This document shows positions 27,127-64,000 of a DNA stretch of 64,000 nucleotides, one piece after another (the stretch's first letter is position 1; every line of letters begins with the position of its first letter). The notes under the pieces were generated by a model. That model was not told where the DNA came from and made no database searches. It saw nothing but the letters and a program-made list of their open reading frames with translations. The DNA is from a virus (lineage: Duplodnaviria > Caudoviricetes): the IMG/VR virus record IMGVR_UViG_3300011116_001229. One strand, given 5' to 3'. The translations under genes were made by a program, and so were the position numbers.

Positions 27127-27426
27127 ATGGCCTTATTCGGAAGATATGATGCTAGTAACAAGATAGATAGAGGAAATCAGCAGGGGACATCTTTCACTAT
27201 ATCAAGAATACGTCAAGGCATAAAGAACGGATCAATACCTCTAGTCGGACAAATTGTCGCAACCGGCGCAGATAGACTCGACACACTCGCAGGAACTGTA
27301 TATGGGGATGCCAGATATTGGTGGGTCTTAGCAGCTGCGTCTGATATCGGTTGGGGTTTACAAGTACCGCCTGGCACACTAATCAACATTATTGATCTAC
27401 GACGCATAGAGGAGATATCGTCCTAA
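27127..27426 (+). CDS. LysM / gpX (gp53-like) baseplate protein
   Basis: GADRLDTLAGTVYGDARYWWVLAAAS...VPPGTLINI. Confidence 0.8.
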   Translation: MALFGRYDASNKIDRGNQQGTSFTISRIRQGIKNGSIPLVGQIVATGADRLDTLAGTVYGDARYWWVLAAASDIGWGLQVPPGTLINIIDLRRIEEISS

Positions 27427-31942: not shown

Positions 31943-31975
31943 ACATTATGATTTATCTAGTTTATTGTTGGTTGT

Positions 31976-39451: not shown

Positions 39452-42400
39452 ATGTCGTACACACGTGATGAAGCTTTTAACGCCTCTTTAAAGTATTTCA
39501 ACGGAGATGAATTAGCTGCGAGCGTATTTGTTGATAAATACGCGCTGAGAGACGCGTCAGGGAAATTACACGAACTGACACCGTCAGATATGCACCGTAG
39601 ACTGGCGCGTGAGTTTGCAAGAATTGAAGCCAAGTATCCCAATCCGTTGTCTGAAAAAGAAATCTTTTGTCTTTTGGCTGACGTAGATCACATTGAAGAA
39701 TCAAAGCGCGCATCTATGACATTGGATGAATTGGCTTCTGAATCTCGAGGATTCGGTGCCGTGGTGCCGCAGGGTTCTCCGATGTCGGCCATTGGTAATG
39801 AATTTCAGTATCAGTCGTTATCTAATTGCTTCGTGATTCAGTCGCCTTATGATTCCTACGCTGGTATCCTAAAAGCCGACCAAGAGCAAGCTCAAATCAT
39901 GAAACGTCGAGGAGGTGTTGGCTTTGATGTTTCTACTATTCGTCCAAAAGGATTAATCACAGCAAACGCTGCCCGTACCACAGACGGCATTGGGGTCTTC
40001 ATGGAAAGGTTCTCAAATACCTGCCGCGAAGTTGCCCAAGGTGGCCGCCGCGGAGCGTTAATGCTTACTATCGATGTTCACCACCCAGAGATCCGCACCT
40101 TCATCAACATCAAGCGCGACCTCAAGAAGGTTACTGGTGCCAACATCTCCATTCGTCTCACTGACGAATTCATGCAAGCAGTGAAAGATGGTGAAAAAGC
40201 ACACCTTAGATTCCCTGTTGAGAAGGACGCAAAGCATACAGTTGAAACTTGGGTTGATGCTCGAGAACTTTGGCATGAAATTATTGAAGCAGCTTGGGCT
40301 TCTGCAGAACCAGGACTATTATTCTGGGACACTGTCAAGAAGCGTACACCAACTGAGGCATATGAGGATTATCGTTCAACATCCACGAATCCATGTATTG
40401 TTGGTGATACGCTCATTGCCGTTGCAGACGGAAGAAATGCAGTCAGTATCCGTCAGCTTGCGGAAGAAGGCAAGGACGTTCCGGTGTATTCGACTAACCC
40501 AGAAACTGGTCAAGTTGAAATTAAATTAGGAAGAAAACCGAGACTAACAAAGAATCAAGTCGAGGTCTGGAAGTTGACGCTTGACGATGGAAGCTTCCTT
40601 ATTGCAACACCTGATCATAGGATCATGAAGCGCGACTGCACTTATGTGGAGCTTCAGAACCTAAAGTCTGGTGATTCCATCTTTCCATTCAACTCTTTTA
40701 ATTCAAATGGGTACAGACAAGTTTCCAACACAGGTGTCTTGATGACAGGCGGAGCTCGAAGAAATAGACGACAGTATCGTCTCATCCACGAGTTCCATTT
40801 TGGGCCCGTTGATCCAAAAATTCATGCTATTCATCATATTGATTGTGATTCTCTCAATGACAGCATTGAGAACATGAGGATCATGACCCATAAGGAACAT
40901 CATGATTTACATTCTAAGAACATGCTGGGGGAGAGCAATCCTTACTTCAAGATGTCTGAAGAGTGGAAAACAAACTTTGCAACCCATCCTGGCGAAACAA
41001 ATGGCAGATTCTCGGGCCATACTAACGATCAGCTTCTTGAACATGGCAGGAATCTATTTGAGAAACATGGCAAGCTGACAGGAAAGATCTGGTCGGACCA
41101 TGCCAAGAAACATGGTCTACCTCAATTCCTTGCAAATAAGTTCCGGTTTGAGTCTTGGAATAACTTTGTTAATCAGGTATCTAACAATCACAAGGTCGTC
41201 TCAGTAGAGAAATTCGGCATTGAGGATGTCTACAATATCACGGTTGACGATAATCACAACTACCATGTTATCACTTCACATGAGGATTCCAAGTTCGTGG
41301 TTTCCTCTGGCATCTGTGTCAAGAACTGCGGTGAAATCGTTCTATCACCATACGATTCTTGTAGGTTGCTTCTCGTCAATCTCTACAAGTTCGTCAAGAA
41401 CCCATTCACATCTGCTGCCTCATATGACAACGAGAGACTCAAGGATGTTGCAGTTAAAGCACAGCGTCTCATGGATGATCTCATCGACCTTGAGATTGAA
41501 GCTGTTGATAAGATCATTGCTAAGATTCAGAATGATCCAGAACCAGAAGACGTTAAAAGGTCTGAACTTGACCTCTGGACTAAGATTAAAAAAGCAGCTC
41601 TCGGAGGTCGGAGAACTGGCTTGGGTATCACTGCGCTTGGAGACACATTGGCTGCAATGGGCTTCGTCTACGGTTCAAAGAATTCTATCCAAATGACTGA
41701 ATCGCTCTACAAGGCATTAGCACTTTCTGCCTATCGTTCGACTGTCGCGATGGCTGCAGAGCGTGGTGCATTCCCAGTCTTCTCTCATAAGCTTGAGGAG
41801 AAGCATCCATTCATCCAACAAATCCTTGAAGCAGACCCTGATCTCGCAAAGGATTACAAGAAGCACGGCCGCCGAAACATCGCTCTAACAACTACAGCAC
41901 CGGCTGGTTCTGTGTCTGTCCTAACGCAAACGACGTCTGGTATCGAGCCGGCGTTCATGCTCTTCTACAAACGCCGCAAGAAGGTCAACGGTGATGATCC
42001 AAATGTTCGTGTCGACTTTGTAGATCCACTCGGCGACAAGTGGCAGGAGTACATGGTATACCATCATGCTTTCAAGAAGTGGATGGAGGTCAACGGAAAG
42101 ACCGAAACCGACTTCGCTGAGTCTCCATACCACGGCGGCACCGCAAATGAGATCGATTGGGTTGCCAAGGTCGACCTCCAAGCCGCCGCCCAGAAGTGGA
42201 TCTGTCATTCTATCTCCAACACAACAAACATTCCAAATTCAACTTCAGTTGATGTTGTCAAGGGCATCTACATGAGGGGTTGGGAGACTGGGTGTAAGGG
42301 TGTCACAATCTATCGTGATGGATGCCGAACCGGCGTTCTCGTAGCAGAGACTCCGAAGGAAGAGCAGACAATTGAAGGTCAGCCTGATACCTTAATAGAA

Positions 42401-42955
42401 AATCATGCACCAAAGCGACCCAAGGAATTAACCTGTGATATTCACAGAATTAACGTGAGGTCATCTGGTGACAATGAGAGCTATCTTGTTTTGGTGGGTA
42501 AGCTAGAAGATAAGCCATACGAAATCTTCTGCGGTCTATCGCAGCACGTTGAGGTACCGAAAAAAGCCAAGACAGGTACGATGATCAAGAATGGCAAGAA
42601 GGATGGGGTTGCGACCTACAATCTTCAGATTCCGATTGGTGATGATGATCAGCTATTGTTCAAGGACGTTGTAGAATTATTTTCAAATCCAAATCATGGA
42701 TCCATGACAAGAACTTTATCGTTAGCACTACGACATGGAGTTCCTGTTCAATACGTGGTTGAGCAGCTTCAAAAGGACAAACACAGCGGCCTTCAGTCTT
42801 TCTCTAGAGCTATCTCTCGTGTCTTAAAAACATATATTCCTGATGGAACAAAAGCGCAGTCAGACAAGATCTGCGGTTCTTGCGGTCTTGAAGGAATTGT
42901 CTACAAAGAAGGTTGCGCAACCTGTAACTCTTGCGGTTGGTCAAAATGTGGGTGA
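39452..42955 (+). CDS. nrdJ: Class II (B12-dependent) ribonucleotide reductase with an intein
   Basis: SNCF, TNPC..GE split by an intein, APAGSVS..TQTTSGIEP, YRDGCR; C-terminal TSCPD-like domain and Zn ribbon; no ATP cone; no beta-subunit gene nearby. Confidence 0.88.
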   Translation: MSYTRDEAFNASLKYFNGDELAASVFVDKYALRDASGKLHELTPSDMHRRLAREFARIEAKYPNPLSEKEIFCLLADVDHIEESKRASMTLDELASESRGFGAVVPQGSPMSAIGNEFQYQSLSNCFVIQSPYDSYAGILKADQEQAQIMKRRGGVGFDVSTIRPKGLITANAARTTDGIGVFMERFSNTCREVAQGGRRGALMLTIDVHHPEIRTFINIKRDLKKVTGANISIRLTDEFMQAVKDGEKAHLRFPVEKDAKHTVETWVDARELWHEIIEAAWASAEPGLLFWDTVKKRTPTEAYEDYRSTSTNPCIVGDTLIAVADGRNAVSIRQLAEEGKDVPVYSTNPETGQVEIKLGRKPRLTKNQVEVWKLTLDDGSFLIATPDHRIMKRDCTYVELQNLKSGDSIFPFNSFNSNGYRQVSNTGVLMTGGARRNRRQYRLIHEFHFGPVDPKIHAIHHIDCDSLNDSIENMRIMTHKEHHDLHSKNMLGESNPYFKMSEEWKTNFATHPGETNGRFSGHTNDQLLEHGRNLFEKHGKLTGKIWSDHAKKHGLPQFLANKFRFESWNNFVNQVSNNHKVVSVEKFGIEDVYNITVDDNHNYHVITSHEDSKFVVSSGICVKNCGEIVLSPYDSCRLLLVNLYKFVKNPFTSAASYDNERLKDVAVKAQRLMDDLIDLEIEAVDKIIAKIQNDPEPEDVKRSELDLWTKIKKAALGGRRTGLGITALGDTLAAMGFVYGSKNSIQMTESLYKALALSAYRSTVAMAAERGAFPVFSHKLEEKHPFIQQILEADPDLAKDYKKHGRRNIALTTTAPAGSVSVLTQTTSGIEPAFMLFYKRRKKVNGDDPNVRVDFVDPLGDKWQEYMVYHHAFKKWMEVNGKTETDFAESPYHGGTANEIDWVAKVDLQAAAQKWICHSISNTTNIPNSTSVDVVKGIYMRGWETGCKGVTIYRDGCRTGVLVAETPKEEQTIEGQPDTLIENHAPKRPKELTCDIHRINVRSSGDNESYLVLVGKLEDKPYEIFCGLSQHVEVPKKAKTGTMIKNGKKDGVATYNLQIPIGDDDQLLFKDVVELFSNPNHGSMTRTLSLALRHGVPVQYVVEQLQKDKHSGLQSFSRAISRVLKTYIPDGTKAQSDKICGSCGLEGIVYKEGCATCNSCGWSKCG
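40394..41326 (+). mobile_element. Intein (311 aa) with HNH endonuclease in the RNR active site
   Basis: Begins CIVGDTLIA; block B TPDH; HNH IHHIDCDSLNDSIENM; block F DVYNITVDDNHNY; ends VKN before +1 Cys. Removal restores TNPCGEI. Confidence 0.92.
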
Positions 42956-43412: not shown

Positions 43413-44081
43413 ATGTGGGCTATGCCTCCGCAACCTAATAAAGTTGAGTTGATTGGTTTTTATGGATCTGATGAAATTCATGCTCTTTCAGCGTGGACTT
43501 CAACTTCAAGAGATCTTACGGAAGAAAAGAGAAGTCGAATTCCTAATCTTTTAAAAATGTTGGCCGAAAATGGACATGAAACTCCTTTTGAAAAATCTTC
43601 GCTACATTTTCTTGTAACGACAGAGATAGCTACACACGCACAACTCCTTAAACATCGTATTGGTGTCTCTATCAACGCTGAGTCTGCTCGTTATAAAGAG
43701 CTCAAGGATGATAAGTACTATGTTCCCGTTGATTGGCCCGCAGCTGAAAAAGAGCTCTACATCGAGCACATGGAATCTTCTCTTCAAAAGTACCATGAGA
43801 CGCTTGAACGCTTAGTTCAAGGAGGAATGTCAAGAAAGCGCGCAAAGGAGTCTGCTAGACTATATCTTCCCTATGGCAATCAGATCACTGCTGACATTAT
43901 GTTTAATTTTCGAAGCTTCGTCCACTTTATTCGCCTACGATATTCAGAACACGCGCAATTAGAGATCAGAGATATTGCAAGTTGCATGTTAAACCTAGTA
44001 GAATCTACTAAAGTCTTTCCGGCAACTTTAGAGGCATTTGGACTCACGGAAAGCGGCGTATTAAGAAGACCATTTTCATGA
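43413..44081 (+). CDS. thyX: FAD-dependent thymidylate synthase
   Basis: GHETPFE; KHRIGVSINAESARY signature; KESARLYLP; FNFRSFVHFIRLR. Confidence 0.9.
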   Translation: MWAMPPQPNKVELIGFYGSDEIHALSAWTSTSRDLTEEKRSRIPNLLKMLAENGHETPFEKSSLHFLVTTEIATHAQLLKHRIGVSINAESARYKELKDDKYYVPVDWPAAEKELYIEHMESSLQKYHETLERLVQGGMSRKRAKESARLYLPYGNQITADIMFNFRSFVHFIRLRYSEHAQLEIRDIASCMLNLVESTKVFPATLEAFGLTESGVLRRPFS

Positions 44082-44665
44082 GTAAAATTATCGTTTTTGA
44101 AGGTGCAGATCGCTGTGGAAAAGCTACACAGAGCGCTATTCTTAAAGATCATATTCAATCTTTGGGGAACACTGCGGCAATTGTAGAAGTACCAATCCGC
44201 TCTGCTATCACATATAGAGCTATTTATTGGATGCTTAAGAATGGACTCGCAAAAAATCTTCCAAAAACATTCCAGGTCATTCAATTCCTCAATAGAAAGT
44301 TTTTTCAGTGGTTTACTCTCCCACGCCTAGAGAAAGTTTATGACTACATTATCTTAGATAGATGGAGTTTATCAACTGTTATTTACGGCGGCGCTGAAGG
44401 TGTTTCGCAGTGTTTTACTGTTGGTCTCTCAAAATTTCTGCGTGATCCTGATCACACTGTTGTCCTAATTGGCAAATCGTTTCCTCACGATGCGGAGGAT
44501 GTATATGAAGCTGATCAAGCTCTTCAAGAAAAAGTCAGAGAAGGTTATGCCCAATGGGTAGTGAATAACTACGACAAGGCTAGTCTTCATGACTGTCGGC
44601 AAGAAAAGCATGTTCTAGCAAAAAAGATACAACTAGTTTTATCATCTAAGAAAATCATCCCTTGA
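44078..44665 (+). CDS. tmk: Thymidylate kinase
   Basis: IVFEGADRCGKATQ P-loop; ILDRWSLSTVIYG. Confidence 0.85.
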   Translation: MSKIIVFEGADRCGKATQSAILKDHIQSLGNTAAIVEVPIRSAITYRAIYWMLKNGLAKNLPKTFQVIQFLNRKFFQWFTLPRLEKVYDYIILDRWSLSTVIYGGAEGVSQCFTVGLSKFLRDPDHTVVLIGKSFPHDAEDVYEADQALQEKVREGYAQWVVNNYDKASLHDCRQEKHVLAKKIQLVLSSKKIIP

Positions 44666-51797: not shown

Positions 51798-51826
51798 TTG
51801 TAAATTCAATCATAAGATGTTATGAT
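51798..51826 (+). promoter_or_regulatory. Sigma70-like promoter
   Basis: TTGTAA-N17-TATGAT with an extended -10 TG; the predicted TSS falls at ATG 51834. Confidence 0.55.
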
Positions 51827-51833
51827 TGAATAC

Positions 51834-52925
51834 ATGCAAAAAACTCTTTGCTTTGATGATGTACTGTTAATTCCTCAATATTCTGAGATTGAGTCAAGAA
51901 AAAATGTTGATCTAACAGTCTCAGGATTTGATGAAAATGCTGCAAAATTAACATGTGCTTTTCAGGCATTGAGATGCCCTATTGTGGGATCTCCTATGGA
52001 CACTGTAATGAGCCCAGACGCTGCTGCTGTGCTGGATCGAGTGGGAGGTTTTGGTATTTTACACCGTTATTGTACAATAACTGAAGCTGTAAAAACGTTC
52101 TTAGACACAATGGAAAAGACGGTCTATGAGGATAATCCTATGCCCAATATTATGTCTGCAGTTGGTGCAACTGGCGATTATCTAGAAAGATCACATGCAC
52201 TTTATGAAGCAGGTTGCCGAGCCTTTTGCATTGATGTTGCTCACGGACATCATGCTTCTGTTAAAACAGCTATCTCTGAAATGCGTCTAAAATTTGGAGA
52301 TGATATCCACATCATGTCTGGAAATGTTGCCACGCTTGAAGCGTTCAATGATCTTGCAGATTGGGGGTCAAACTCGATTCGTGTTGGAGTCGGCGGTGGA
52401 TCCATGTGTTCTACTCGTATTCGAACTGGACATGGAATTCCAACTTTGCAATCTGTGTTAGATTGTGGGAAATCAGATAGAGACGTATTGTTAATTGCTG
52501 ACGGAGGTATTAGAAATAGCGGCGACTTTGTAAAATCACTTGCTGCAGGCGCGGATATGGTGATGCTAGGTTCACTTCTTGCAGGTCACAAAGAATGCCC
52601 AGGCGACGTGATAGATGACAAAGGTTTCATATACCAGAATCTGCCATCGGGCTCTATTAAATTATTTAAAAAATTTAGAGGAATGGCCTCGCGTGAAGCA
52701 CAGCTCAAATGGAGAGGACGTGTTTCTGTCGTTGAGGGAGAGTCAACAGCTGTACCTTACAAGGGACTAATGATGAATACCATCGCTGATCTGCTTGAAG
52801 GAGTTAGGTCAGGCCTGTCTTATTCAGGTGCTAGAACAATTAGAGAGCTACGAAGTAAAGCGAGGTTTGTTTCTGTGACATCGCAGGGAGTACGAGAAAA
52901 TGTACCCCATGGTAAATTGGCTTAA
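51834..52925 (+). CDS. IMPDH / GMP reductase family protein without CBS domains
   Basis: LCFDDVLLIP, SPMDTV, IDVAHGH, GNVAT, RVGVGGGSMCSTR (catalytic Cys), IADGGI, RGMAS, GVRSGLSYSGA. Confidence 0.88.
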   Translation: MQKTLCFDDVLLIPQYSEIESRKNVDLTVSGFDENAAKLTCAFQALRCPIVGSPMDTVMSPDAAAVLDRVGGFGILHRYCTITEAVKTFLDTMEKTVYEDNPMPNIMSAVGATGDYLERSHALYEAGCRAFCIDVAHGHHASVKTAISEMRLKFGDDIHIMSGNVATLEAFNDLADWGSNSIRVGVGGGSMCSTRIRTGHGIPTLQSVLDCGKSDRDVLLIADGGIRNSGDFVKSLAAGADMVMLGSLLAGHKECPGDVIDDKGFIYQNLPSGSIKLFKKFRGMASREAQLKWRGRVSVVEGESTAVPYKGLMMNTIADLLEGVRSGLSYSGARTIRELRSKARFVSVTSQGVRENVPHGKLA

Positions 52926-53602: not shown

Positions 53603-53631
53603 TTGTACTTTACTTCCAATGATTCTAAAAT
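53603..53631 (+). promoter_or_regulatory. Sigma70-like promoter
   Basis: TTGTAC-N17-TAAAAT upstream of the all-alpha pyrophosphatase gene. Confidence 0.5.
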
Positions 53632-53650
53632 ACGATTAAGGAAAAGACAC

Positions 53651-54016
53651 ATGGATAAACTTGACGAGATGTATAACCAGCAGCGAGACTTCAATTATCT
53701 CTTGAGAGATGAAAGAGGTTATCCTGACTTTCCGCTCGATCTAAAAGAAAAGAAGAATCAACAGATTCTTAAGGGGCTTGCGCATGAGTGCATGCATGAA
53801 CTCTTCGAGGCTAATCATCTACTAAAGAATAGCAAGAATCATCGAGTTACCGAAGTAAAAGAATTTGACAGAGAGTCTTACAAAGAAGAACTTGTTGATG
53901 CGCTACATTACTTCTTTGGAATTGTAATCTATAGCGGCATTTCTGCAGAAGAGCTACATGAAGCTTTCATGAAGAAGGGTGCTGTTAACGTGCAACGAGT
54001 GAAGACCGGTTATTGA
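53651..54016 (+). CDS. All-alpha NTP pyrophosphatase (dimeric dUTPase / MazG / T4 gp56-like)
   Basis: HECMHELFEA...K.HR...KEELVDALHYF (ExxE..EExD); ATG 53651 after AAGGA. Confidence 0.8.
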   Translation: MDKLDEMYNQQRDFNYLLRDERGYPDFPLDLKEKKNQQILKGLAHECMHELFEANHLLKNSKNHRVTEVKEFDRESYKEELVDALHYFFGIVIYSGISAEELHEAFMKKGAVNVQRVKTGY

Positions 54017-54960
54017 CTATGACAAAGTGGGACGACTTGCATAATGCTCTAAAAGCTCAGAAATCCTTTTCCGATTATTTTTATGACACTAATCAACTAA
54101 CAAATGAGCAGAAAATTGAAGAACTAAAGACTTTGAGCTTAGCGTTACACTCTGAGATTTCAGAGATGTGCAATGCTGTCAATTACAAAGAGCATCGCAG
54201 AGAATCTCGCGAAACAGACTTGCAGAAGATTCTGTACAAGTCTGCTGATGCTTATCGTTATATTCTTGCTATAGCAAACCTATGGGGAATAACTGCAGAT
54301 AAATTAACATCTGCCTTAGAACAAAAGGACCACTATCTGCACTATAGACATCAACTTCGTGACAAGAGATGGTGCGGAGAACCGATTGTGCTCTTTGATA
54401 TTGACGACGTACTTGCTGAGTTCAGATATGAGTTCTGCAGATTTGTTACAGATCAGACTGGAATCTTCATGGATCCTAACAGCTCAGAGTACTATAACAC
54501 TGTTAAGTTCAAAGAACACGGTCTTAACAGCGAGTATTTCTTTAAAAAATTTATTGACGATCATGGATTTTTGAGATTGGACTTGAACAAGCGTTACTAC
54601 GATTTGTTGACGCGTCTAAAAGCTCGAGGACACTGGGTGCAAATAGTCACTGCACGAGATGCAAGCAATCTCACGTGTTTCTATGACACTTACGCATGGC
54701 TGCATCTCAACAACATTCCAGCAGATGATGTAGTTTTCACGCCCGAGAAATTTGCCTGGTTGGCAGGCCAAGATTTCTATAAGACAGCTCGATTATTTGC
54801 TGTTGATGATTCAGCAAAGCATGCATCTGAATACGCTAAGCATGGCGTGACTTGCGTTGTTCCAAAAAAATCTTACAATGTTGAAGTAAAAAATGTCAAG
54901 GGTGTCATCTACATCGAAGACAGCGACGATATTTTTGCTAAAATTAACACTATCCTTTAG
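54013..54960 (+). CDS. Fusion: degenerate all-alpha NTP-PPase domain plus HAD 5'-nucleotidase
   Basis: ALHSEISEM..NYKEHR...YKSADAYRY; then LFDIDDVL, IVTAR, PEK and AVDDS HAD motifs I-IV. Confidence 0.75.
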   Translation: MTMTKWDDLHNALKAQKSFSDYFYDTNQLTNEQKIEELKTLSLALHSEISEMCNAVNYKEHRRESRETDLQKILYKSADAYRYILAIANLWGITADKLTSALEQKDHYLHYRHQLRDKRWCGEPIVLFDIDDVLAEFRYEFCRFVTDQTGIFMDPNSSEYYNTVKFKEHGLNSEYFFKKFIDDHGFLRLDLNKRYYDLLTRLKARGHWVQIVTARDASNLTCFYDTYAWLHLNNIPADDVVFTPEKFAWLAGQDFYKTARLFAVDDSAKHASEYAKHGVTCVVPKKSYNVEVKNVKGVIYIEDSDDIFAKINTIL

Positions 54961-55030
54961 CGCGAGAACGTGTTATACTTTACAGACTGCTCGACTAATA
55001 ATTGCAGCTTGACTCAAACTTGGAGAAATT

Positions 55031-56011
55031 ATGCCCATTAATAAAGACCTACAGCCGATTGAACTACCCATGGAATTAAAGTTCGGACGACCTGTTCGCA
55101 CCAAGTTCCATAATAATATTGATGCACTAAAGATTGAGCTCGTCGACCATCCTGCGCGTCAACAAGCATGGAACGTCGCTTGGCATTATGTTAAGGCAAC
55201 TTGGGCAGATAGACCTGACATCTCGCCTGAGTCTGTATCGCATCGAGAACTTTCTAAAAACCTGGAAGATGTTTTCGGAGGCCGCACTCTGCCAGCGCCC
55301 ATGGAATGTCTTGGCTTCACATTTAGATTAAGTGGTATGTCTTTTCAAGAGGTGACTCATATTATCAGACATCGTGCAGGAACTTTTGCTGCACAATGCA
55401 CAGGCGATCGTGACCTCCGAGATGATGATGCAGTAATTCCAGAACCCGTAGAGAATTCACCTGAGTTCTTAGCGCGCTGGAAGAAGATTGTGGAAGATTC
55501 CAAGCAACTCTATGCTGATATGACTGATTCAAAGGTTGTGTCCATGATGGACGCACGTTTGATTCTACCAAAGTGCATGACGTCTTTCTACTACATGCGA
55601 CTTCCTCTCAAGGAGCTAATTGGCTTCATCTATCAACGTCAGGATAGGCAGATTCAGACGTCAGCTGATAATATTCTGGCAGCACGCATGGCAGTTGAGG
55701 TGGCTAAGGTCATTCCTGAGTTCACTACGCTAGTTGATTTCAACAAGCCTGACATGCACTACATCAAGACCTTCCGCGTGAAGGAAGGTGATAAGTTCGT
55801 GTCTCGCGGAACGAACCTCTATTGGCCGGAACCCAAGAACGACAAGTTTGAGTTCCACCCAGATGACACTATCTACCAGGCTCGCCGTGAAGAGCTCAAC
55901 GGCACGCATGGTGATGGCCCACAGCGAAAGTTTGTAGCTGCCTGGGATTCTGCAGTGTCCGAGTTTGAGAGTATTAAAAAGCAACACAATGATTGGAAGG
56001 AAGGTAAATAA
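55031..56011 (+). CDS. Divergent ThyX-fold flavoprotein (second paralog)
   Basis: FTFRLSGMS...IIRHRAGTFAAQCTGDR...MDARLILP; the RHR-x7-S signature has Cys in place of Ser. Confidence 0.7.
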   Translation: MPINKDLQPIELPMELKFGRPVRTKFHNNIDALKIELVDHPARQQAWNVAWHYVKATWADRPDISPESVSHRELSKNLEDVFGGRTLPAPMECLGFTFRLSGMSFQEVTHIIRHRAGTFAAQCTGDRDLRDDDAVIPEPVENSPEFLARWKKIVEDSKQLYADMTDSKVVSMMDARLILPKCMTSFYYMRLPLKELIGFIYQRQDRQIQTSADNILAARMAVEVAKVIPEFTTLVDFNKPDMHYIKTFRVKEGDKFVSRGTNLYWPEPKNDKFEFHPDDTIYQARREELNGTHGDGPQRKFVAAWDSAVSEFESIKKQHNDWKEGK

Positions 56012-56053
56012 AGTAATTAAGTACTTTTGTACCTGACGGAGATAAGTATAGCC

Positions 56054-56233
56054 ATGAAACAATCGAAGATCTCGGTCGATGAAGAGACCCATAAATTGCT
56101 GAAGATATACTGTGCTCAGCACGGTCTGATTATGAGTCAGTTCACCGCCGAGATCATTCGAGAGAGGATTGGCAATGAAAGAGAAGATCTGCGCACAATG
56201 CGAAAAGAAATTTGTGCCAAAGAATCCATTTAG
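56054..56233 (+). CDS. Small ribbon-helix-helix-type DNA-binding protein
   Basis: KISVDEETHKLLKIYCAQHGLIMSQFTAEII has the strand-helix-helix pattern. Confidence 0.6.
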   Translation: MKQSKISVDEETHKLLKIYCAQHGLIMSQFTAEIIRERIGNEREDLRTMRKEICAKESI

Positions 56234-57068
56234 TAATAAGTCTGGTTTCTTCTTTTGCTCGAAAGAGTGCACTTATCTTGCTCAGAAGAAGGGCGGTGTC
56301 ACATATGAGCTCCGTCGAAAGAGGTCACTAGAGAAGCACGGCACCGACTTTCCAATGTCTTGCCCTGAGATAAAGAATAAGCGCAGCAACAACAACATAA
56401 AAAAGTACGGTGTTGCCAGCACGTTTGAACTTGATTCAGTCAAAGAGAAGTCAAAAAAGACTTCACGTGAGAAATATGGGGTTGATGTTTACTCACAAAC
56501 AACAGAATTCAAGTCCAAGATCGAAGAGACAAATCTAAAGAGATTCGGACATAAGTCTCCGATAGAAAATCCCAACATTCTAGAACGACGACGGCAGACA
56601 ATGATCGACAGATGGGGAGGTCCATCAACTTTCGAATCACCTGTTCTACGAGCTCGCGCTGAAGATACCTGTATTGAAAAGTTCGGAGTTCATAATATTG
56701 TCTTATCGCCGACGTTTATCTCTTCTTCCATGGATAAGAAACTGCTCAAATCACATGGAAAAACTTGGCAGCAGTACATCGATGACCTACCTGAATTTCA
56801 GGATTATCGAAGAAAAGTCGATCACTTTACACGCATGCAGCCGATCGAACAGCTAGCCAATCATGATAAACGTGGTGAATATCATCTCGATCACAAGTTT
56901 TCAGTCGCTGAAGGGTTTAGACAAGGTCTACCACCCGAGGTGATAGGTCACATTGTGAATCTGGAATTCATACCGGCTGCAGAAAATCTTCGAAAACAGT
57001 CAAGTTGTTCAATTGACAAAGACGCATTACTATCAGAATACTCAACTAGAAAGGTAAATCAAAGATGA
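56175..57068 (+). mobile_element. Putative HNH homing endonuclease with (E/K)K(Y/F)G repeats
   Basis: CAQC...CSKEC; repeats EKHG, KKYG, EKYG, KRFG, DRWG, EKFG; C-terminal YHLDHKFS...NLEFIPAAENLRK. Confidence 0.7.
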
Positions 57069-57520
57069 ATCGAAAAAAGATGTATCTCGCAAGCGGATGG
57101 TTCAACCCTACACAGGAAGCAGAGCTCACGAGGCTCGAGCAGATTATGGAAGCACGTAAGGACTGGATCGATATGGCTTCACCACGTAGGATCTTCATCT
57201 GTCCACCTAATGCATCTCGTGAAGTACAAGATGCAACCTATCAGGGTAATCTTAAACACATCCGCGAGGCTGACTTCCTCGTTGTGAACACCCGCGACAA
57301 GGATCTCGGTACGATCATGGAATGTGGTTATGCTACAGCCTTTGACAAGCATATCATCTACTTCTGTGCAGGACTTCCCCCCGGAGCAAAATTTAATCTT
57401 ATGCTTTCAAGATCGGGTGCATTCGTGGCTACTTCGTTCGAACAACTCGAAGACTACCTCGATCGGTGCAAGTCTGCAGGCGAGATGCTTTACGAACCGT
57501 ACGACAAGGAAATTGAGTGA
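57065..57520 (+). CDS. Nucleoside 2-deoxyribosyltransferase / nucleotide N-glycosidase family
   Basis: MYLASGWFN...ADFLVVN..DKDLGTIMECGYA matches the NDT Y..A...F / D.GT..E.G.A pattern. Confidence 0.8.
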   Translation: MNRKKMYLASGWFNPTQEAELTRLEQIMEARKDWIDMASPRRIFICPPNASREVQDATYQGNLKHIREADFLVVNTRDKDLGTIMECGYATAFDKHIIYFCAGLPPGAKFNLMLSRSGAFVATSFEQLEDYLDRCKSAGEMLYEPYDKEIE

Positions 57521-57580
57521 CTTAAAGTGAAAATGAAGAGAGGCGCTATAAAATTGGCGTCTCCTTCATAATTAAGTGTT

Positions 57581-58342
57581 ATGTTAATCAAGCTTTCACA
57601 ACTTCGTAAAATTATTAGAGAAGAGCTTTCACGTACTTTGAGTGAAGACGCATCTGATTTAAGCGCAGCAGAACCAAGCGAAATGGTAAAAAATCTAGCT
57701 GGGAAAACAGGATTGGGTCCTTTCTCTTACGGCCCTATCTCTTTAAGAAATTTAATGGCAAAAGTTGAATCAACAGGAGATATATCGCTGTTAGATAACT
57801 GGGACAAAGTAGTTGCTGCAGCGTATGAAACAGAGAAAGAAATAAAGCGAATAAGAAACACTCCTACTTATGAGATCACTGATGCGCAGGGAAATAAACA
57901 AGTTCGACCCAGATCTCCTGGTTCAATTTTAAATACTGAGAGTAGAAAAGCAGCTGAAGATGCAGCAGCTGAACAGGGCCTCGAAGGAGAAGTTGCCGGT
58001 CGAGATTATGCAGCATATGTTTCAACACTTGTCGATAGCATGAAGAACTTTAAACAGGTTCCGCCTATAAGAGCTGATATCCTCGCTGCTCTTGAATTTC
58101 GCAAACAAAAGAAAGAAGCTCACGAGAATAGAGAGGCTTCACCCGAAGATATAAAGAAGCTTAGAAATCTTTTAGCATCCCACGATTGGTACTACGAGAG
58201 AGCTGAAGGTCTTCAGCCGTCTTATACTAAGGGTGCTGCTCAAGCCGAAGAGATTAAGCTCCTTGTCAATAAAATGGGCAAAACAGGTAGAGATATGTAC
58301 AACGCTGCCGCAGCAAAAGCATTCCCAAAGGGTGCGACTTGA
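57581..58342 (+). CDS. Hypothetical protein with LRKIIREE leader
   Basis: MLIKLSQLRKIIREELSRTLSE; ATAATTA 6 nt before the ATG. Confidence 0.6.
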   Translation: MLIKLSQLRKIIREELSRTLSEDASDLSAAEPSEMVKNLAGKTGLGPFSYGPISLRNLMAKVESTGDISLLDNWDKVVAAAYETEKEIKRIRNTPTYEITDAQGNKQVRPRSPGSILNTESRKAAEDAAAEQGLEGEVAGRDYAAYVSTLVDSMKNFKQVPPIRADILAALEFRKQKKEAHENREASPEDIKKLRNLLASHDWYYERAEGLQPSYTKGAAQAEEIKLLVNKMGKTGRDMYNAAAAKAFPKGAT

Positions 58343-58405
58343 TCTAAGCGAGATGATTAAAATCTTCTTTGCAGTTATATTTAAAGACATCATTTGGAGA
58401 AAAAC

Positions 58406-58684
58406 ATGAAATTGACATCATCACAGCTTCGCAAGATCATCTCAGAAGAGGTCTCAAAGGTTGTCACCGAGCAAGGATTAACACCAGGCAGACTTGCGCT
58501 AGGATCACTTGCAGATATTTCTGAAATAGAAAAAGCAAAAGCTGCTTTAGACTCTTTTCGTATGCACATAGAGAAGAATGCTATCGCCGAGGGGCATGAC
58601 AGTGAAGAAGCAGAAGACTTCGCGCGCGACGGATTGGGCGAGATGTTTCAAGAATTCATGCAAAGCATTGGATACAGGATGTGA
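58406..58684 (+). CDS. Hypothetical protein with LRKIISEE leader
   Basis: MKLTSSQLRKIISEEVSKVVTE; GGAG SD; ATATTTA at 58377-58383. Confidence 0.6.
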   Translation: MKLTSSQLRKIISEEVSKVVTEQGLTPGRLALGSLADISEIEKAKAALDSFRMHIEKNAIAEGHDSEEAEDFARDGLGEMFQEFMQSIGYRM

Positions 58685-58724
58685 TTTTTAGTTTGTAATT
58701 CGTTCTTAAAATCTCGAGATGTAT

Positions 58725-58764
58725 AAAAAGCGACCTTGTATTTGGTCGCTTTTTTTGTTATAAT
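58725..58764 (+). promoter_or_regulatory. Bidirectional terminator overlapping a sigma70-like promoter
   Basis: AAAAAGCGACC-N8-GGTCGCTTTTTT hairpin; TTGTAT(58736)-N17-TATAAT(58759) with an extended -10 TG. Confidence 0.65.
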
Positions 58765-58783
58765 GGTCTGCATCGGAGGAAAC

Positions 58784-59776
58784 ATGCGTTTTTACATCAC
58801 AGGTGGTGCAGGTTTTATTGCTAGACATTTGAAGAAGAATCTGATTGTTAGAGGGCATTCGATTCTCTCGGACGCCGATCTGATCGGTGATGGCATGCTT
58901 ACCTTGCCCAAGACGGGTGAAGTCTGTGTGCATCGCAATTCAGAAGACGCTTGGACAAGAGCTTTTGAAAAATACGGCGTTGATGTTGTTGTGCACAATG
59001 CAGCTGTGGTGGGAACAGACGTGGTTGCTCTCAATCCCGCAGAAGCGACTCTGAGCAACGTGCACGGTTCTTACAATATTGTTAGAGCAGCTAACGCAAC
59101 TGGTGCCGGCGTGTGCTACATGGGTACCACCGTGATTTATGACACGCCTTCCTACCAGAACCAGCAAATTTTTGAAGATTCTGTCAGAAAACCACTTACG
59201 TACTACGGCGTACAGAAGCTTGCAGGTGAACAGATCATCACCAGCATGGCAAAACGCTGGTCTGTGGTGCGTCCTCTCTTCGCTTTTGGTGACGAGGGTG
59301 ACATGAATTCACTCATCGCCAAGAGTATCTATGCATCCTTGCAGAACAAAGATTCTGTTGACATCTTCTTAGACCCCGCGAAGATCAAGGATTATCTCCA
59401 CGTGTCCGATTACTGTGAAGCCGTGTCGATGATCTGTGAGAGCAAGGATGGTTGGGGTACTGATTTTAACGTCGCAGCTGAGACACCTCACACCGCCGCA
59501 GAGATCATGAATCTTGTTTCTCGTGTTGTCGGGAAAAACGTAGAAAAAATCGTCCGCTGGTATCCAAAGACTGATTATCTCGGAAACCACAGACTGTCAT
59601 CTGCCAAGGTCAGAAAGCAAATTGGCTGGTCTCCGAAGCTTGACTTGGAGGGCGGCGTCAAGGCGACTTACGATTGGATTTCTTCAAATTCATCTAAGAA
59701 CTATAACCCTCTGAAGTATCTCGATGAAGCTAAGTCGAAAGGTACAGATCTACTGCAACATTTCCCTAAAGTTTGA
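58784..59776 (+). CDS. NAD-dependent epimerase/dehydratase (extended SDR, nucleotide-sugar type)
   Basis: GGAGFIA, HNAAVVG, YGVQK (YxxxK), DYLHVSD; ATG 58784 after GGAGG. Confidence 0.85.
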   Translation: MRFYITGGAGFIARHLKKNLIVRGHSILSDADLIGDGMLTLPKTGEVCVHRNSEDAWTRAFEKYGVDVVVHNAAVVGTDVVALNPAEATLSNVHGSYNIVRAANATGAGVCYMGTTVIYDTPSYQNQQIFEDSVRKPLTYYGVQKLAGEQIITSMAKRWSVVRPLFAFGDEGDMNSLIAKSIYASLQNKDSVDIFLDPAKIKDYLHVSDYCEAVSMICESKDGWGTDFNVAAETPHTAAEIMNLVSRVVGKNVEKIVRWYPKTDYLGNHRLSSAKVRKQIGWSPKLDLEGGVKATYDWISSNSSKNYNPLKYLDEAKSKGTDLLQHFPKV

Positions 59777-59878: not shown

Positions 59879-60772
59879 ATGGAGAGTAAATGTGAAGTTT
59901 GCGGAATTAGCATAGAATCAAAACCAAGACTACGTACTTGTTCAAAAAAATGCGGTTACGTGTTGAGAAGTCGTACTAGAAATATAAAACATGAGCCTGT
60001 TGAAAAGATATGTCTCGACTGCGAGTGTAATTTTCAAGATACTTCAAAAAAGAAGTTAGTCGTTAGATGCAAACCATGCATAAACAATTCCATGGTTGCT
60101 ACACGTTACGCAAGAGGAAGCTATGAGCGCTCAGAAGAGCAGAACGAGAAATTGTCTATTACGCTTAAGACAAAGTACGAATCAGGATGGAACCCTAACA
60201 CTGAAGAGCATCGAGAAAAATTATCCGAGGGAATGAAGGCTCGCTGGCAAGATGGTTCAATGAGAAAGAAGTCGGTTGCAACAACGCTTGAAAAGTATGG
60301 AGTTGAGCACTGGGCGCAGTCTGAAGAAGGAAAGACAGTGCTATCACAGAGGTCAAGAGGCAGAAAATTTTCTGATGAAACTCGTAAAAATATGAGTCAA
60401 GGCGCTGCAAGGCGCATTAGAGAGAATAATAATCATTATGAACGAGGTAATGGAGGTTTTAGAGAAGACCTCGGACACTATGTACGGAGTAACTGGGAAG
60501 CTAATTTTGCTAGAATATTAAAAATTCAAGGAAAGTCTTACGAATACGAACCTAAGACATTTCAAATTGCTGAGGATAAAACGTATACACCCGATTTTCT
60601 TGTCGATGGTATTTTCTACGAAGTTAAAGGCTATTGGACCGAAAAATCGAAACTTAAATTAGAATCATTTGTAAAAATATATCCCGAAATAGAATTGCAA
60701 ATCATCGACGGCACAAAGTACAATGAGCTTAGAGAAGCTTACCAAGATCTAATTCACTGGGAAGGCAAATAA
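59879..60772 (+). mobile_element. Free-standing putative homing endonuclease (Zn-binding N-terminus, NUMOD3-like repeats, PD-(D/E)xK domain)
   Basis: CEVC...CSKKC; HREKLSEGM and ETRKNMS repeats; VRSNWEANFA...YEYEP...YTPDF...YEVKGY. Confidence 0.75.
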
Positions 60773-60775
60773 TAA

Positions 60776-63700
60776 ATGAACAGCACAAAGGAGAAGAGCT
60801 ACTTGAAGCTTGAGTCCGTGCGACCTCCTACTCGGTTTGTGGGGTTTCACGCGCACTCAGGCTTCTCGTAAAGTTACGACATTTGACGGTTTGGGTTACC
60901 CTGCAGATCACATTGCCTTTGTCACCTCTGAGTCACAAGGCATGGATGCCTGGGCACTGACAGATCACGGCAATGGCAACGGACTTGCACACGCACATTC
61001 TGCTGCCAAGAAGATTCAGAAGAAAGGTGTGAAGTATCGACAGCTCTACGGCGTGGAGTTCTACTTCGTTCCTTCACTTTCGCAGTGGCGTATCGATTAC
61101 GAGGCCCACAAGCAATCAGTCAAGGACGCGAAGTCTGCAGCTGAGGCTGAGAAGAAAGCAAAGATTCGAACTGACATCGACGCTGACGAGGCAGCAGAGG
61201 AAGAGGAGGCCGGTGGCCACGTCGTGGAGGATGAGGCAGAGACGAAGGCCGACGACTACAAGGAGAAGCCTGACTGGCAGCGTCGTTACCACCTCGTGGC
61301 AGTGGCGCAGTCAGCTGAGGGGCTCGCGAACATCAACCGTCTCGTCAAGGCATCATTTAAAGACGGATTCTACCGTTATCCACGCATCGACTTCGACCTC
61401 CTCAGAAAGTGGGGCAAAGGGATCGTGTGGTCGAGCGCCTGCCTCGGCGGAACAATGGCGGGTACAATTCTACGAGGCGTAGCACATAATAGAACTTCTG
61501 AGCAAATTATTGCTGATCTTGAAGTTCTCACAGGTCAGTTCGTCGAAGCAGTCGGCCAAGAGAACTTCTTCCTCGAACTGCAATTCAATAAGCTCGAGAA
61601 ACAACACACCGTAAACAAGTACCTCATCGACCTGTCTCGAAAGACCGGTGTGAAGCTGCTGGCCACATGCGACTCTCACTATCCAGATCCCTCCAAGTGG
61701 CAGGCCCGTGAGCTCTACAAGAAGCTGGGCTGGATGGGCACGAAGCTAGACGAGCAAGCACTACCGAAGTTCGAGGACCTGAAGTGCGAGCTGTATCCCA
61801 AGAACGCTACCCAGATGTGGGACGAGTTCAAGAAGTCCTACGAACAGTACGACTTCTACAAGGGTTCCGAGGAGGAAGTTCGTGACGCGATCGAGCGGAC
61901 TCACGACGTCGCTTGGCAGCATTGCGAGGACACTTGGGTCGATGTGAAACCAAAGCTGCCCAAGGTCGACACACCAGAAAAAACAGCATTCCAGCAGCTC
62001 ACTGAGCTTGTTAAAGAAGGTCTTACCCGCGAAGGTCTTGCTGATAAGCCTGAGTATGTCGATCGAGCTAAATATGAGCTCGGAGACATCAAATATCTGA
62101 ATTGTGCTTCTTACTTCATTACGATGTATAAAGTGTTCAATCTTGCGAAGGAGAAGACGCTCTTTGGAAGCGGCCGCGGGAGTGGTGCGGGATCGCTCGT
62201 CAACTTCCTGTTAGGCATCACGCAGATCGATCCGATACCATACGGTTTGCTTTGGAGCAGATTTTTAGGACGACACCGAGTGAGCTTTCCGGATATCGAT
62301 ACAGACGCAGGTGACAGGGATGTCCTTATCGATGCGGCACGAACTCTGTTCGGCGATGACGCCGTGATCCCGGTGTCCAACTTCAACACCCTGAAGCTCA
62401 AGTCCCTCGTCAAGGACATCGCCAAGATCTACGGCGTGCCCTTCGAGGAGGTGAACGAGATGACCGGCCCTCTCCAGGACGAGGTGATGCCGCTGGCTCG
62501 AGACGAGGACCAGGAGAAGTCGGTCTTCGTGCTGAAGCATGAGGACTGCATGAAGTACTCGCCGAAGTACACGGCCTTCATGGAGAAGTATCCTGACGTT
62601 GCTGCACACGTCGAGACACTGTTCATGCAGAACAGGTCCATCGGAAGGCATGCAGGAGGCGTACTCTTAGCAGATCCTGAAGATCTTGCTGCAAACATGC
62701 CTATCATTGGCGTCAGAGGCGAGCTGCAGACACCGTGGACAGAGGGTATGAACTTCCGCAATCTGGAGGATAACGGCTTCTTGAAGTTTGACTTCCTAGG
62801 TCTCACGCTTCTCAAAGATGTCGAGAACTGCATTAGACGCATTCTCATCAAGAATGGCAATCTTGATCCTACCTTCCTGGACATTAGAGGCTTCTTCGAC
62901 AAGCATCTAAACTGTCGATACGTGAAGCAGGACGATCCTGCTGTGTGGAAGCATGTCTACCAGGACGGCTCGTTTGTGTCAGTCTTCCAGATGACTGCAG
63001 AGGGTGCTCGGAAGTTCTGCAAGGCAGTTAAACCGACGAAGATCGAAGACCTCACAGCTATTACAGCGATCTACCGCCCTGGGCCTCTCAAAGCAAACGT
63101 GCACAACCTCTTTGTCGAAGCTAGAAAGCTTGACAAGATCAATTACCCACACCCAATCATCGAGCAAGTCCTTGGACCTACGAAAAATTTCGTTGTGTAT
63201 CAGGAACAATTTATGTTGTTAGCAGAAAAACTAGGTGGCTTTACACCTGGTGAAGCTGATCAGCTGCGCAAGACGCTAGTTAAGAAGTCGCTTGACACGC
63301 TGGACAAAAAGTCATCAGAGAAGGAGCTTGCTAAGCAGAAGTTTATTGAGGGTGCTCAGCGACTTCACGGAGTTCCTCCAGAAGTGACCGAGCCTCTTTG
63401 GCAAACAATTGACAACATGAGCGTCTATTGTTTCAATAAATCCCACAGTTTAGCATATGCTATCGATTCCTACTATGCAGCATGGCTTCATACACACTAC
63501 GAGAAAGAGTGGCTGGCAACTGCACTTCAATCAGCTTCCAGCAACCCAAAAGAACTTGCGAAGACGATCTCCGAGATCAAGGCGTTAGGCTTCAAGTTCT
63601 CGAAGCACGACATCAACTACTCGGGCAAGGAGTGGCAGTTCTCTGAGGAGGCCGATGCTTTCGTGCCGCCTCTCGGTTCAGTGAAGGGAATTGGATCTGC

Positions 63701-64000
63701 AGCAGTTGAAGAGATCATGGCGAACAGGCCCTACAAGGATCTAGCTACTATGCTCTATGACGACGCAGGTGAGTGGCGACACAGCAAGGTGAACAAGACA
63801 GCTCTGTCAGCTCTTTGCAAGATTGATGCGCTTTCTTCTTTGGAAGATTTTAATCTAGGTAGAGTTAATAATCATAAGCAACTTCTAATGGCTTTGACAG
63901 ATGACAAGAATTACGAGATGCTTCGACGTGGTCTCTACGGCCTGACTGCATCGCAGCTGAAGAAGAAAGCTAAGGCCGGCGAAAAGATCGAAGCTTTCTT
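60776..64000 (+). CDS. dnaE: DNA polymerase III alpha subunit; frame interrupted at 60869-60878; truncated by the window end
   Basis: Frame 0 gives M...FVGFHAHSGFS*. The +1 frame from 60879 gives TFDGLGY...LTDHGN...GVEFY...SACLGG...CDSHY...GRGSGAGSLV...FPDIDTD...HAGGV...KFDFLGL...YQEQFM...FNKSH and is open to 64000. Confidence 0.92.
60866..60879. other. 10-nt stop-containing insert with a 6-bp inverted repeat
   Basis: TCGTAA-AG-TTACGA; deleting TAAAGTTACG restores HAHSGFSTFDG. Confidence 0.75.

Follow-up and report, generated by a model that had tools for sequence, protein, structure and literature searches.

The 64,000-nucleotide stretch of viral DNA analyzed here (the window; IMG/VR record IMGVR_UViG_3300011116_001229, Caudoviricetes) encodes, upstream of a DnaE-type replicative polymerase, a cluster of nucleotide-related enzymes (positions 53,603 to 59,776) centered on a divergent member of the ThyX family of flavin-dependent thymidylate synthases, referred to below as Cys-ThyX. 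Its gene is preceded by those for a short all-alpha nucleoside triphosphate pyrophosphatase (PPase) and a protein in which a second all-alpha domain is fused to a HAD nucleotidase, and is followed by genes for a nucleoside 2-deoxyribosyltransferase (NDT) and an extended SDR protein (Table 1). The original prediction for this DNA, made from its letters alone, had proposed that these genes make or sanitize a non-canonical pyrimidine. Family matches place all the genes that it named on the plus strand, mostly where it had put them; its list was real, and left out a DUF7487 gene, an Endonuclease I-like gene and two open reading frames (ORFs) that match no family.

The window comes from a large phage with a contractile tail, and encodes two sheath paralogs of ~1,000 amino acids and T4-type baseplate proteins. 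Megablast with the region returned no near relative among 50,697 phage records, and the same DNA is present in lake, river and estuary metagenomes (22 public runs, nine studies). Replication and nucleotide genes occupy the plus strand from 33 kb onward, encoding a gp32-like protein, RecA, a trimeric Dut, a Volactin-type actin, FEN and DnaB, then an intein-bearing ribonucleotide reductase (RNR) large subunit, a canonical ThyX, Tmk, an N6/N4 methyltransferase and a GMP-reductase/IMPDH-family enzyme, after which comes the Cys-ThyX cluster. The complete and separate dTTP route that had been predicted, with an RNR gene termed nrdJ, is indeed encoded; its canonical thyX and tmk are the ordinary dTMP/dTDP route and the comparator for the paralog.

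Table 1. Genes of the Cys-ThyX cluster and of the ordinary dTTP route in the window
Feature	Position	Strand	Remarks
Short all-alpha PPase	53651..54016	+	ORF opens at TTG 53603; likely start ATG 53651 behind a ribosome-binding site
All-alpha and HAD fusion	54013..54960	+	N-domain (residues ~1-115) PPase-like; C-domain (~120-315) HAD 5'(3')-deoxyribonucleotidase-like
Divergent ThyX-family flavoenzyme (Cys-ThyX), 326 aa	55031..56011	+	Pfam Thy1 (PF02511) 59.3 bits (cut-off 24.8)
Homing-endonuclease-like gene	56169..57068	+	Between Cys-ThyX and NDT; Pfam DUF7487 84 bits; phrog_3339 homing endonuclease
NDT	57065..57520	+	Pfam Nuc_deoxyrib_tr 54 bits (cut-off 28.8); phrog_7995 1.7e-23
253-aa ORF	57581..58342	+	No Pfam or PHROG match
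96-aa ORF	58394..58684	+	No family match
Extended SDR (NAD-dependent epimerase/dehydratase)	58784..59776	+	ORF from 58736; likely start ATG 58784; Epimerase 98.9 bits
DUF7487 and Endonuclease I-like nuclease	59879..60772	+	Phage_endo_I 29 bits; phrog_945 2.4e-13
DnaE-type replicative polymerase	60810..63998	+	Runs off window end; DNA_pol3_alpha 168 bits; finger, PHP and HHH_6 domains
Trimeric dut	from 35148	+	Separate dTTP route
RNR large subunit	39452-42955	+	Ribonuc_red_lgC and TSCPD domains; intein inside
Canonical thyX and tmk	43413..44665	+	thyX: Thy1 129 bits, with KHRIGVSINAESARY; tmk at 44078: Thymidylate_kin 34 bits

The divergent ThyX paralog

Cys-ThyX scores well above the cut-off of the Pfam ThyX family, at a lower value than the canonical copy (Table 1). 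Its central motif, read directly in the sequence, is RHRAGTFAAQCTGDR (pattern RHR-x7-C-TGDR), and the stretch IRHRxGxFAAQCTGDRDLR does not vary among 28 relatives (56-83% identity). The ThyX signature RHRxxSxxxxSxR(Y) is not present; the paralog reads RHRAGTFAAQCTGDRD, in which a cysteine occupies the position of the second serine, two residues are inserted before the arginine, and an aspartate stands for the tyrosine. An AlphaFold (AF2) model based on the 28 relatives (pLDDT 82) has a ThyX core at residues ~33-231, flanked by conserved extensions of ~30 (N-terminal) and ~95 (C-terminal) amino acids. Foldseek matched this model with a probability of 1.0 to ThyX and to the polyoxin methylase PolB, with TM-scores by target of 0.66-0.73 to ThyX structures. 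Searching the PDB with phmmer, using either the ThyX-like protein or the fusion protein, gave no match; only the family profile reached ThyX, and its best match was 3g4c, the S88C mutant of Thermotoga maritima ThyX, because Cys123 falls on Ser88.

Aligned by profile to T. maritima ThyX, C123 corresponds to S88, C93 to H53, R176 to R147 and R203 to R174. All four arginines that bind the phosphate and uracil of dUMP (R113, R115, R176 and R203, equivalent to T. maritima R78, R80, R147 and R174) are present and invariant in relatives; the nucleotide-binding arginines are therefore kept, and it is the SxRY half of the ThyX signature that has been rewritten. Retention of R203, the equivalent of the uracil-contacting arginine, favors a uracil substrate. 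In sum, the paralog shares with canonical ThyX (T. maritima TM0449, Mycobacterium tuberculosis) the fold, the RxR element and the R147 and R174 equivalents, and differs in Ser88 to Cys, Tyr91 to Asp, His53 to Cys, the two-residue insertion and the conserved extensions. The change of His53 to Cys93 might have pointed to a loss of folate binding, but this reading was discarded, as the canonical ThyX of the window has a lysine there.

Such a protein might still be a divergent genuine thymidylate synthase, in which case the PPase would be a second dUTPase feeding it dUMP, and the phage DNA would be ordinary. The retained dUMP-contacting arginines are in keeping with this, as is the best PDB match, the S88C mutant, which is reportedly active. 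The loss of Tyr91 and of the SxR spacing of the signature speaks against it, and, taking into account the partner enzymes and relatives described below, we regard this explanation as rather unlikely, if a serious one.

The family to which Cys-ThyX belongs is broad. A word-based search returned 1,125 homologs from aquatic metagenomes, the best 120 of which are 78-99% identical, and an exhaustive search of representatives at 50% identity gave 316 clusters with E<=1e-3, of which 121 reach E<=1e-10 and 43 reach E<=1e-30. Many of these clusters match the paralog over its full length, extensions included, and the nearest are assigned to viruses in the protein atlas. The motif of the wider family is h-h-R-x-R ... 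S-F-[SA]-x-Q-C-[TS]-G-D-x-D-x-R, with the central histidine of RHR often lost. A literature search found no described Cys-type or modifying phage ThyX. Xanthomonas phage XcP1 and its relatives encode a ThyX (25% identity) that was set aside: it reads RTR...ETSR and is not of the Cys type, and the 311-aa gene upstream of it is unrelated to the fusion protein.

Recruitment of the ThyX fold beyond thymidylate for DNA has a precedent in polyoxin PolB, a UMP/dUMP C5-methylase (4p5a, 4p5b) that is among the best structural matches of Cys-ThyX. Unlike Cys-ThyX, to which it is ~19% identical, PolB comes from a Streptomyces antibiotic cluster and has neither the Cys-TGDR motif nor the C-terminal extension.

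Partner enzymes

The short PPase matches Pfam dUTPase_2 (27.3 bits, cut-off 22.9) and phrog_12184 (1.3e-13), and its acidic metal-binding residues E50, E53, E79, E80 and D83 (ExxE...EExxD) are invariant in 22 homologs. The closest solved structures are those of the dimeric dUTPases 1w2y and 5mil (from Campylobacter jejuni and Staphylococcus aureus phages), followed by MazG and DCTPP1, a resemblance that also suits a second dUTPase supplying a plain thymidylate synthase.

In the HAD half of the fusion protein, motifs I to IV are present (D129, D131, T213, K246, D265 and D266, in at least 54 of 60 diverse homologs; motif I reads DIDDVLAEF). The match to Pfam NT5C is 24.6 bits vs. a cut-off of 24.8; phrog_2643, a 5'-3' deoxyribonucleotidase, is matched at 6.8e-6, and phrog_415 ('polynucleotide kinase') scores better. 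The N-terminal domain reaches 18 bits to dUTPase_2, which is below the cut-off, and only E48 and D79 are conserved in the 60 homologs. A 5'-deoxynucleotidase fused to a pyrophosphatase sits uneasily with ordinary thymidylate synthesis, since it would destroy the substrate or the product of the synthase.

DNPH1 has serines at the positions of the aspartate and asparagine of NDTs. The original prediction had named an NDT-family enzyme and likened it to MilB, BlsM and DNPH1, which hydrolyze modified pyrimidine monophosphates; the family assignment holds and the likeness does not. Y7, D80, E86 (the nucleophile) and N111 are found in 19-20 of 20 diverse phage homologs, as in the true NDTs of Lactobacillus leichmannii (1f8x) and Bacillus psychrosaccharolyticus (6evs), which share this nucleophilic glutamate, Tyr7, aspartate and asparagine. 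These two are also the best PDB matches (7.5e-5 for a true NDT), with DNPH1 weaker (E ~0.04-1). With the NDT-type Asp and Asn retained and the phosphate-binding features of DNPH1, MilB and BlsM not present, the enzyme is, to judge by its residues, of the nucleoside type rather than the MilB/BlsM/DNPH1 type; deoxynucleosides, with the nucleotidase as their presumed source, are then the expected substrates.

The SDR carries GGAGFIA (GxxGxxG) and YYGVQK (YxxxK), matches phrog_540 (2e-48) and is closest in the PDB to UDP-glucose 4-epimerase and WbmF-like enzymes. With the catalytic residues of the PPase, the HAD domain and the NDT intact, the partner enzymes look active.

Two alternatives bear on this set of activities. 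Under the one already given, a genuine thymidylate synthase and ordinary DNA, the nucleotidase, the NDT and, in relatives, a thymidine kinase may form a deoxyribose salvage route that turns host-derived dNMPs into the deoxynucleosides that are needed; that the NDT appears to be a true nucleoside transferase, and that relatives encode a thymidine kinase 3' of dnaE, would fit such salvage. Alternatively, the product may not be meant for the phage genome, the cluster making or destroying a free base, nucleoside or nucleotide. NDT-fold enzymes partner with thymidylate synthase-like enzymes in nucleoside-antibiotic pathways (MilA/MilB), and by analogy the ThyX-like enzyme could modify a nucleotide, the nucleotidase dephosphorylate it and the NDT release a modified free pyrimidine; other options are the removal of a toxic or defense nucleotide and the sanitation of damaged dNTPs. 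The order of activities, PPase, nucleotidase and NDT, does lead away from the triphosphate pool. We consider a non-genomic product improbable, however: the NDT is without the phosphate-binding features of nucleotide hydrolases, in all lineages seen the cluster lies next to the polymerase, inside a replication block, and the P-loop dNMP-kinase-like genes that accompany it point to the triphosphate pool.

Conservation of the gene partnership

The original prediction had named the neighborhood of the Cys-ThyX paralog across phages as a check, and had said that its proposal would fall if relatives had no conserved linkage; the linkage proved to be conserved. In the freshwater/marine lineage to which the window belongs, the order PPase, fusion, ThyX-like, NDT, SDR, (Endonuclease I-like), DnaE is kept in 80 IMG/VR loci with ThyX-like proteins of 55-86% identity. 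Within 6 kb of the ThyX-like gene a PPase was counted in 78 of 82 loci, a HAD protein in 69 and an NDT in 79. The SDR follows the NDT in most of the 80 relatives; in L002 it stands after dnaE.

In each of four long relatives (200-284 kb, one rated complete) the paralog (66-70 bits) is encoded alongside a canonical ThyX (129-174 bits), and ThyA was not found in any of them; the paralog is therefore not simply the thymidylate synthase of this lineage. A second lineage (L102-L104) likewise has a canonical ThyX in addition to the paralog. That two lineages should keep both over long divergence is unexpected if Cys-ThyX is a redundant isozyme, and counts against its being an ordinary synthase.

Several other genes of relatives, DHH and RNR small-subunit genes among them, have no counterpart inside the window. 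An Fpg/Nei-type glycosylase (48 loci) and a small HhH-GPD glycosylase are encoded directly 5' of the PPase (e.g. L043:7068-7889 and L015:5098-5538), flanking genes that hint at base-level traffic and to that extent favor a product not destined for the genome. Located 3' of DnaE are the thymidine kinase, a Tmk-like P-loop protein and a second SDR. GT1/GT2 glycosyltransferase islands occur in relatives at least 100 kb from the cluster and were not counted as part of it; gene content beyond the window was judged from relatives G001-G004. In L058 (14000-20000), L074, L049 and L069 the cluster adjoins an array, absent from the window, in which a ~170-aa protein ('U36') is represented by as many as nine tandem paralogs.

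The genes interspersed in the window are less constant. The homing-endonuclease gene and the two unmatched ORFs are not present in most of the 80 loci; the former is missing at its position in most relatives, in which the NDT gene directly follows the ThyX-like gene, and is thus mobile and outside the pathway. The product of the 253-aa ORF was not found in the other 80 loci and is specific to the closest relatives, so that it is probably outside the module, and the 96-aa ORF was found, among the 80 related loci, in L004 and L007 only. The Endonuclease I-like nuclease ('HE2' family) was counted in 33 loci, and many relatives keep its gene in the place between the SDR and dnaE.

Within a single lineage, shared gene order may reflect nothing more than inheritance, and the region from dnaB to dnaE is syntenic throughout the freshwater/marine lineage. 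The enzymes might then form no pathway at all, being independent nucleotide and sugar genes that lie together since phage replication modules are compact and are inherited as blocks. The variable position of the SDR, and a region that tolerates insertions such as the homing endonuclease and the two unmatched ORFs, agree with this explanation. Linkage outside the lineage is stronger evidence for that reason, and it makes the absence of any pathway very improbable: the association has been rebuilt in unrelated genomes with other replicases and other gene orders, and with a nucleotidase that is non-homologous between lineages.

Geobacillus phage GR1, a cultured phage with a 79-kb genome, encodes a ThyX-like protein 45% identical to Cys-ThyX with a QCTGDR motif, and an NDT of 37% identity. 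Within 11 kb it has the ThyX-like gene, the NDT, a YfbR-like HD 5'-deoxynucleotidase, a Tmk-like kinase, a nitroreductase-type flavin reductase, an all-alpha PPase and DnaE. Neither a second ThyX nor a ThyA was found in the GR1 genome, and the paper on this phage (PMC10237291) includes no restriction or modification results. Beside the ThyX-like gene GR1 also has an amidoligase and a GGACT protein; amidoligases co-occur with thymine-hypermodification genes (PMC8989533). The GR1 record annotates a glycosyltransferase in this cluster, a protein that Pfam does not recognize. GR1, the host of which is the type strain Geobacillus stearothermophilus ATCC 10149, is the sole cultured phage with a Cys-ThyX.

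Other unrelated genomes have arrangements of their own: dUTPase_2, NDT, HD (YfbR-like) and ThyX-like in L084; a PolB polymerase followed at a distance by NDT, Tmk-like and ThyX-like in L086; and a primase, then NDT, then ThyX-like, a P-loop protein and PolA in L087. Since the nucleotidase is HAD and NT5C-like in the window, and HD and YfbR-like in GR1 and L084, it is the activity that is conserved, not the gene. In a PolB-polymerase lineage (L096, L099) the order is Tmk-like, an unmatched gene, an extended SDR, Cys-ThyX-like, a small ThyA-like protein and PolB, and an SDR adjoining the Cys-ThyX-like gene here too lends some weight to the SDR as a pathway member. The small protein (174 aa), directly 3' of the Cys-ThyX-like gene in L096 (9038-9559) and also present in L085, L094 and L099, weakly matches the central part of ThyA (25.8 bits). 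A 331-aa gene of L096, which single-linkage clustering had labeled 'aaHAD', was wrongly so labeled; BLAST and Pfam find no relation.

For a census, hidden Markov models were built and applied to 168 loci, counting partners within 6 kb and clustering ThyX proteins at 50% identity. Among the 11 clusters of Cys-type ThyX-like proteins, nine are accompanied by an all-alpha PPase, six by an NDT and three by a nucleotidase (HAD in one lineage, HD in two); the replicases of these phages are PolA, PolB or DnaE. A 'GGRD' subfamily (21 loci) has a PPase in 16, a HAD or HD nucleotidase in 18 and an NDT in none. In the same 18 of 21 loci the PPase-HAD fusion lies directly upstream of the ThyX-like gene, an arrangement not easily put down to independent genes in a compact block. 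The canonical ThyX control (one cluster, 24 loci) has no PPase, no NDT and weak HAD matches in four loci; canonical ThyX loci in the same data set that lack both partners are a further point against ordinary thymidylate synthesis as the role of the cluster. The order kept in 80 contigs, together with recurrence in unrelated phages, indicates a distinct conserved functional unit rather than a chance neighborhood.

Further variants occur in other loci. Proteins of 410-465 aa directly 5' of the ThyX-like gene in L092, L097, L098, L101, L102 and L105 have a dUTPase_2 C-terminus and an unmatched N-terminal part of ~300 aa, and are a second kind of PPase fusion. In the canonical ThyX control lineage (about 40 loci; L108:7006-7974), a 323-aa protein that starts with GxGxxG and has no Pfam match is encoded before ThyX, and may be a dedicated reductase. 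In one distant contig, the second gene after the ThyX-like one encodes a Nucleotid_trans glycosyltransferase.

A candidate pyrimidine modification route

Taken together, these observations lead us to favor, tentatively and at somewhat less than an even chance, the view that the block is a conserved pre-replicative module that remodels pyrimidine deoxynucleotides around a divergent, flavin-dependent ThyX-family enzyme. The unit as such is undescribed, and is best classed as a ThyX-fold variant of the scheme in which a thymidylate synthase-like modifier is combined with hydrolases of the canonical nucleotide. From the gene identities we infer its substrates, its products and the arrival of a product in virion DNA as follows. 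The short PPase would convert a pyrimidine dNTP (dUTP- or dCTP-like) to the dNMP, most likely dUMP, which Cys-ThyX would bind through the retained phosphate and uracil arginines. Flavin chemistry could then alter C5 (or C5/C6), with Cys123, at the position of Ser88 and next to C6, as the candidate nucleophile or acid, to give a product other than dTMP; our best guess is a 5-hydroxymethyl- or 5-hydroxy-type dUMP derivative. A P-loop dNMP kinase would phosphorylate this product and the phage DnaE incorporate it. Meanwhile, the all-alpha and HAD nucleotidase would remove the phosphate from the competing dNMP, and the NDT may recycle its deoxyribose by base exchange, with thymidine kinase re-phosphorylating the product in relatives. 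The extended SDR might tailor the new substituent or supply a nucleotide sugar.

The comparison drawn in the original prediction, with phages that pair a thymidylate synthase-like modifier with a pyrophosphatase for the canonical dNTP, is apt and extends to the dTMPase of the classical 5-hydroxymethyldeoxyuridine (hmdU) pathway. In Bacillus phages SPO1, SP8 and SP5C that pathway combines a thymidylate synthase-like dUMP hydroxymethylase with a dTTPase/dUTPase, a dTMPase, a dCMP deaminase and a dNMP kinase (PMC8989533). Here too, a dNTP pyrophosphatase and a 5'-deoxynucleotidase flank a thymidylate synthase-like enzyme beside replication genes, and GR1, like SPO1, has no ordinary thymidylate synthase. 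In contrast to the hmdU phages, the modifier has a ThyX fold rather than a ThyA fold, an NDT and an SDR are added, and the window keeps a canonical thyX and tmk that hmdU phages do not need.

Coexistence of a paralog with the ordinary enzyme has its parallel in T4, in which gp56 (dCTPase/dUTPase) and gp42 (dCMP hydroxymethylase) stand beside Td, and in which, as would be the case here, a dedicated pyrophosphatase turns a canonical dNTP into the substrate of the paralog. Unlike Cys-ThyX, gp42 is a ThyA homolog with a changed base-recognition residue, and no glucosyltransferase is adjacent to the module described here. The PurZ/MazZ/DatZ system of Z-genome phages similarly relies on an all-alpha (MazG-type) pyrophosphatase to supply a dNMP and on a hydrolase that removes the canonical nucleotide; there it is a purine that is changed, and no ThyX, NDT or HAD nucleotidase takes part. 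In the 5-hydroxycytosine/arabinosyl pathway of RB69 and DLP3, the product of a thymidylate synthase homolog is a hydroxylated pyrimidine mononucleotide, to which a sugar is added later (PMC13326640). The enzyme there has a ThyA fold, and no ThyX, NDT or HAD nucleotidase is involved.

Several findings weigh against the reading we favor. This phage keeps a canonical thyX, tmk and dut, so that a dTTP-excluding role of the PPase and nucleotidase would be futile here. The fusion protein scores just under the Pfam gathering cut-off for NT5C, and its N-terminal domain is without part of the metal-binding set, with K76 where many homologs have a glutamate. Cysteine is present in only ~70% of the wider family, and is therefore not essential to the family's common function. 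The specificity control of the census is a single canonical ThyX cluster, and nucleotide-metabolism genes cluster in phages anyway. DNA of the lineage assembles from ordinary short-read libraries (nine studies), so any modification does not block sequencing. Finally, in GR1 and in complete small phages (55-70 kb) the ThyX-like gene is the sole gene of the thymidylate synthase type, and could thus encode a divergent true thymidylate synthase; in GR1, at 32% G+C (PMC10237291), the rebalancing of bases by such an enzyme and its partners would be useful.

The original proposal of a non-canonical pyrimidine pathway accordingly survives in part: a conserved unit does exist beside a canonical ThyX, the type of NDT and the promoters it had invoked do not hold, and a modified base in the DNA is a possible outcome of its activity. 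The more specific notion that a Cys-bearing, ThyX-fold flavoenzyme founds an undescribed family of pre-replicative pyrimidine modification pathways, putting a 5-substituted dUMP or dCMP into DNA, we put forward as possible but doubtful. The substituent may be hydroxymethyl-, hydroxy- or otherwise oxidized or reduced, with later tailoring by the SDR or by sugar enzymes. To our knowledge, the phage pathways described so far that replace a pyrimidine before replication all start from a ThyA-fold enzyme. A ThyX-fold counterpart, if real, would mean that this strategy had been invented a second time, independently, and could bring flavin chemistry beyond that of ThyA and a new DNA base. Such DNA would then be widespread among large myophages of freshwater and the sea and among smaller phages with PolA or PolB polymerases, as well as present in GR1. 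As the family is uniformly annotated 'thymidylate synthase', any such chemistry is hidden in current annotation. Even if no modified base is made, Cys-ThyX represents a class of ThyX that is new, has diverged strongly and comes with a constant set of partners.

No glycosyltransferase family was matched among the window ORFs scanned, in line with the original prediction, and some ORFs matched no family at all. The genes had also been described as lying behind sigma70-like promoters; such sites occur at chance level (15 found vs. 14.2 +/- 4.5 in shuffles). Extended -10-like boxes precede the ThyX-like gene and the SDR, and a terminator (58725-58754) and a TGTTATAAT box are located 5' of the SDR. 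Just 5' of the module, the IMPDH/GMP-reductase family enzyme (51822-52925, 287 bits) belongs to a family also encoded near dnaE in L018, L019 and L082.

Elsewhere in the window, the intein in the RNR large subunit (39452-42955) carries an HNH endonuclease, and inteins also split the DnaE gene in the relative L002. The actin-family protein (35966-36970) matches Pfam Volactin at 232 bits, and GR1 likewise encodes an actin-like protein (ALP). Positions 30740-32563 encode a short (400 aa) family-A polymerase-like protein, in addition to the DnaE of this phage, and then an HD-domain protein. An ORF of 2,230 aa (16800-23492) and two of ~1,100 aa (23759-27106 and 27426-30707) are without a Pfam match. 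The sheath paralogs (5999-9049 and 9097-12189) are adjacent, have tail-sheath C-terminal domains and, at ~1,000 aa, are unusually long for sheath proteins, and a gene with a TnsA-like endonuclease domain (12937-13854) lies among the tail genes.

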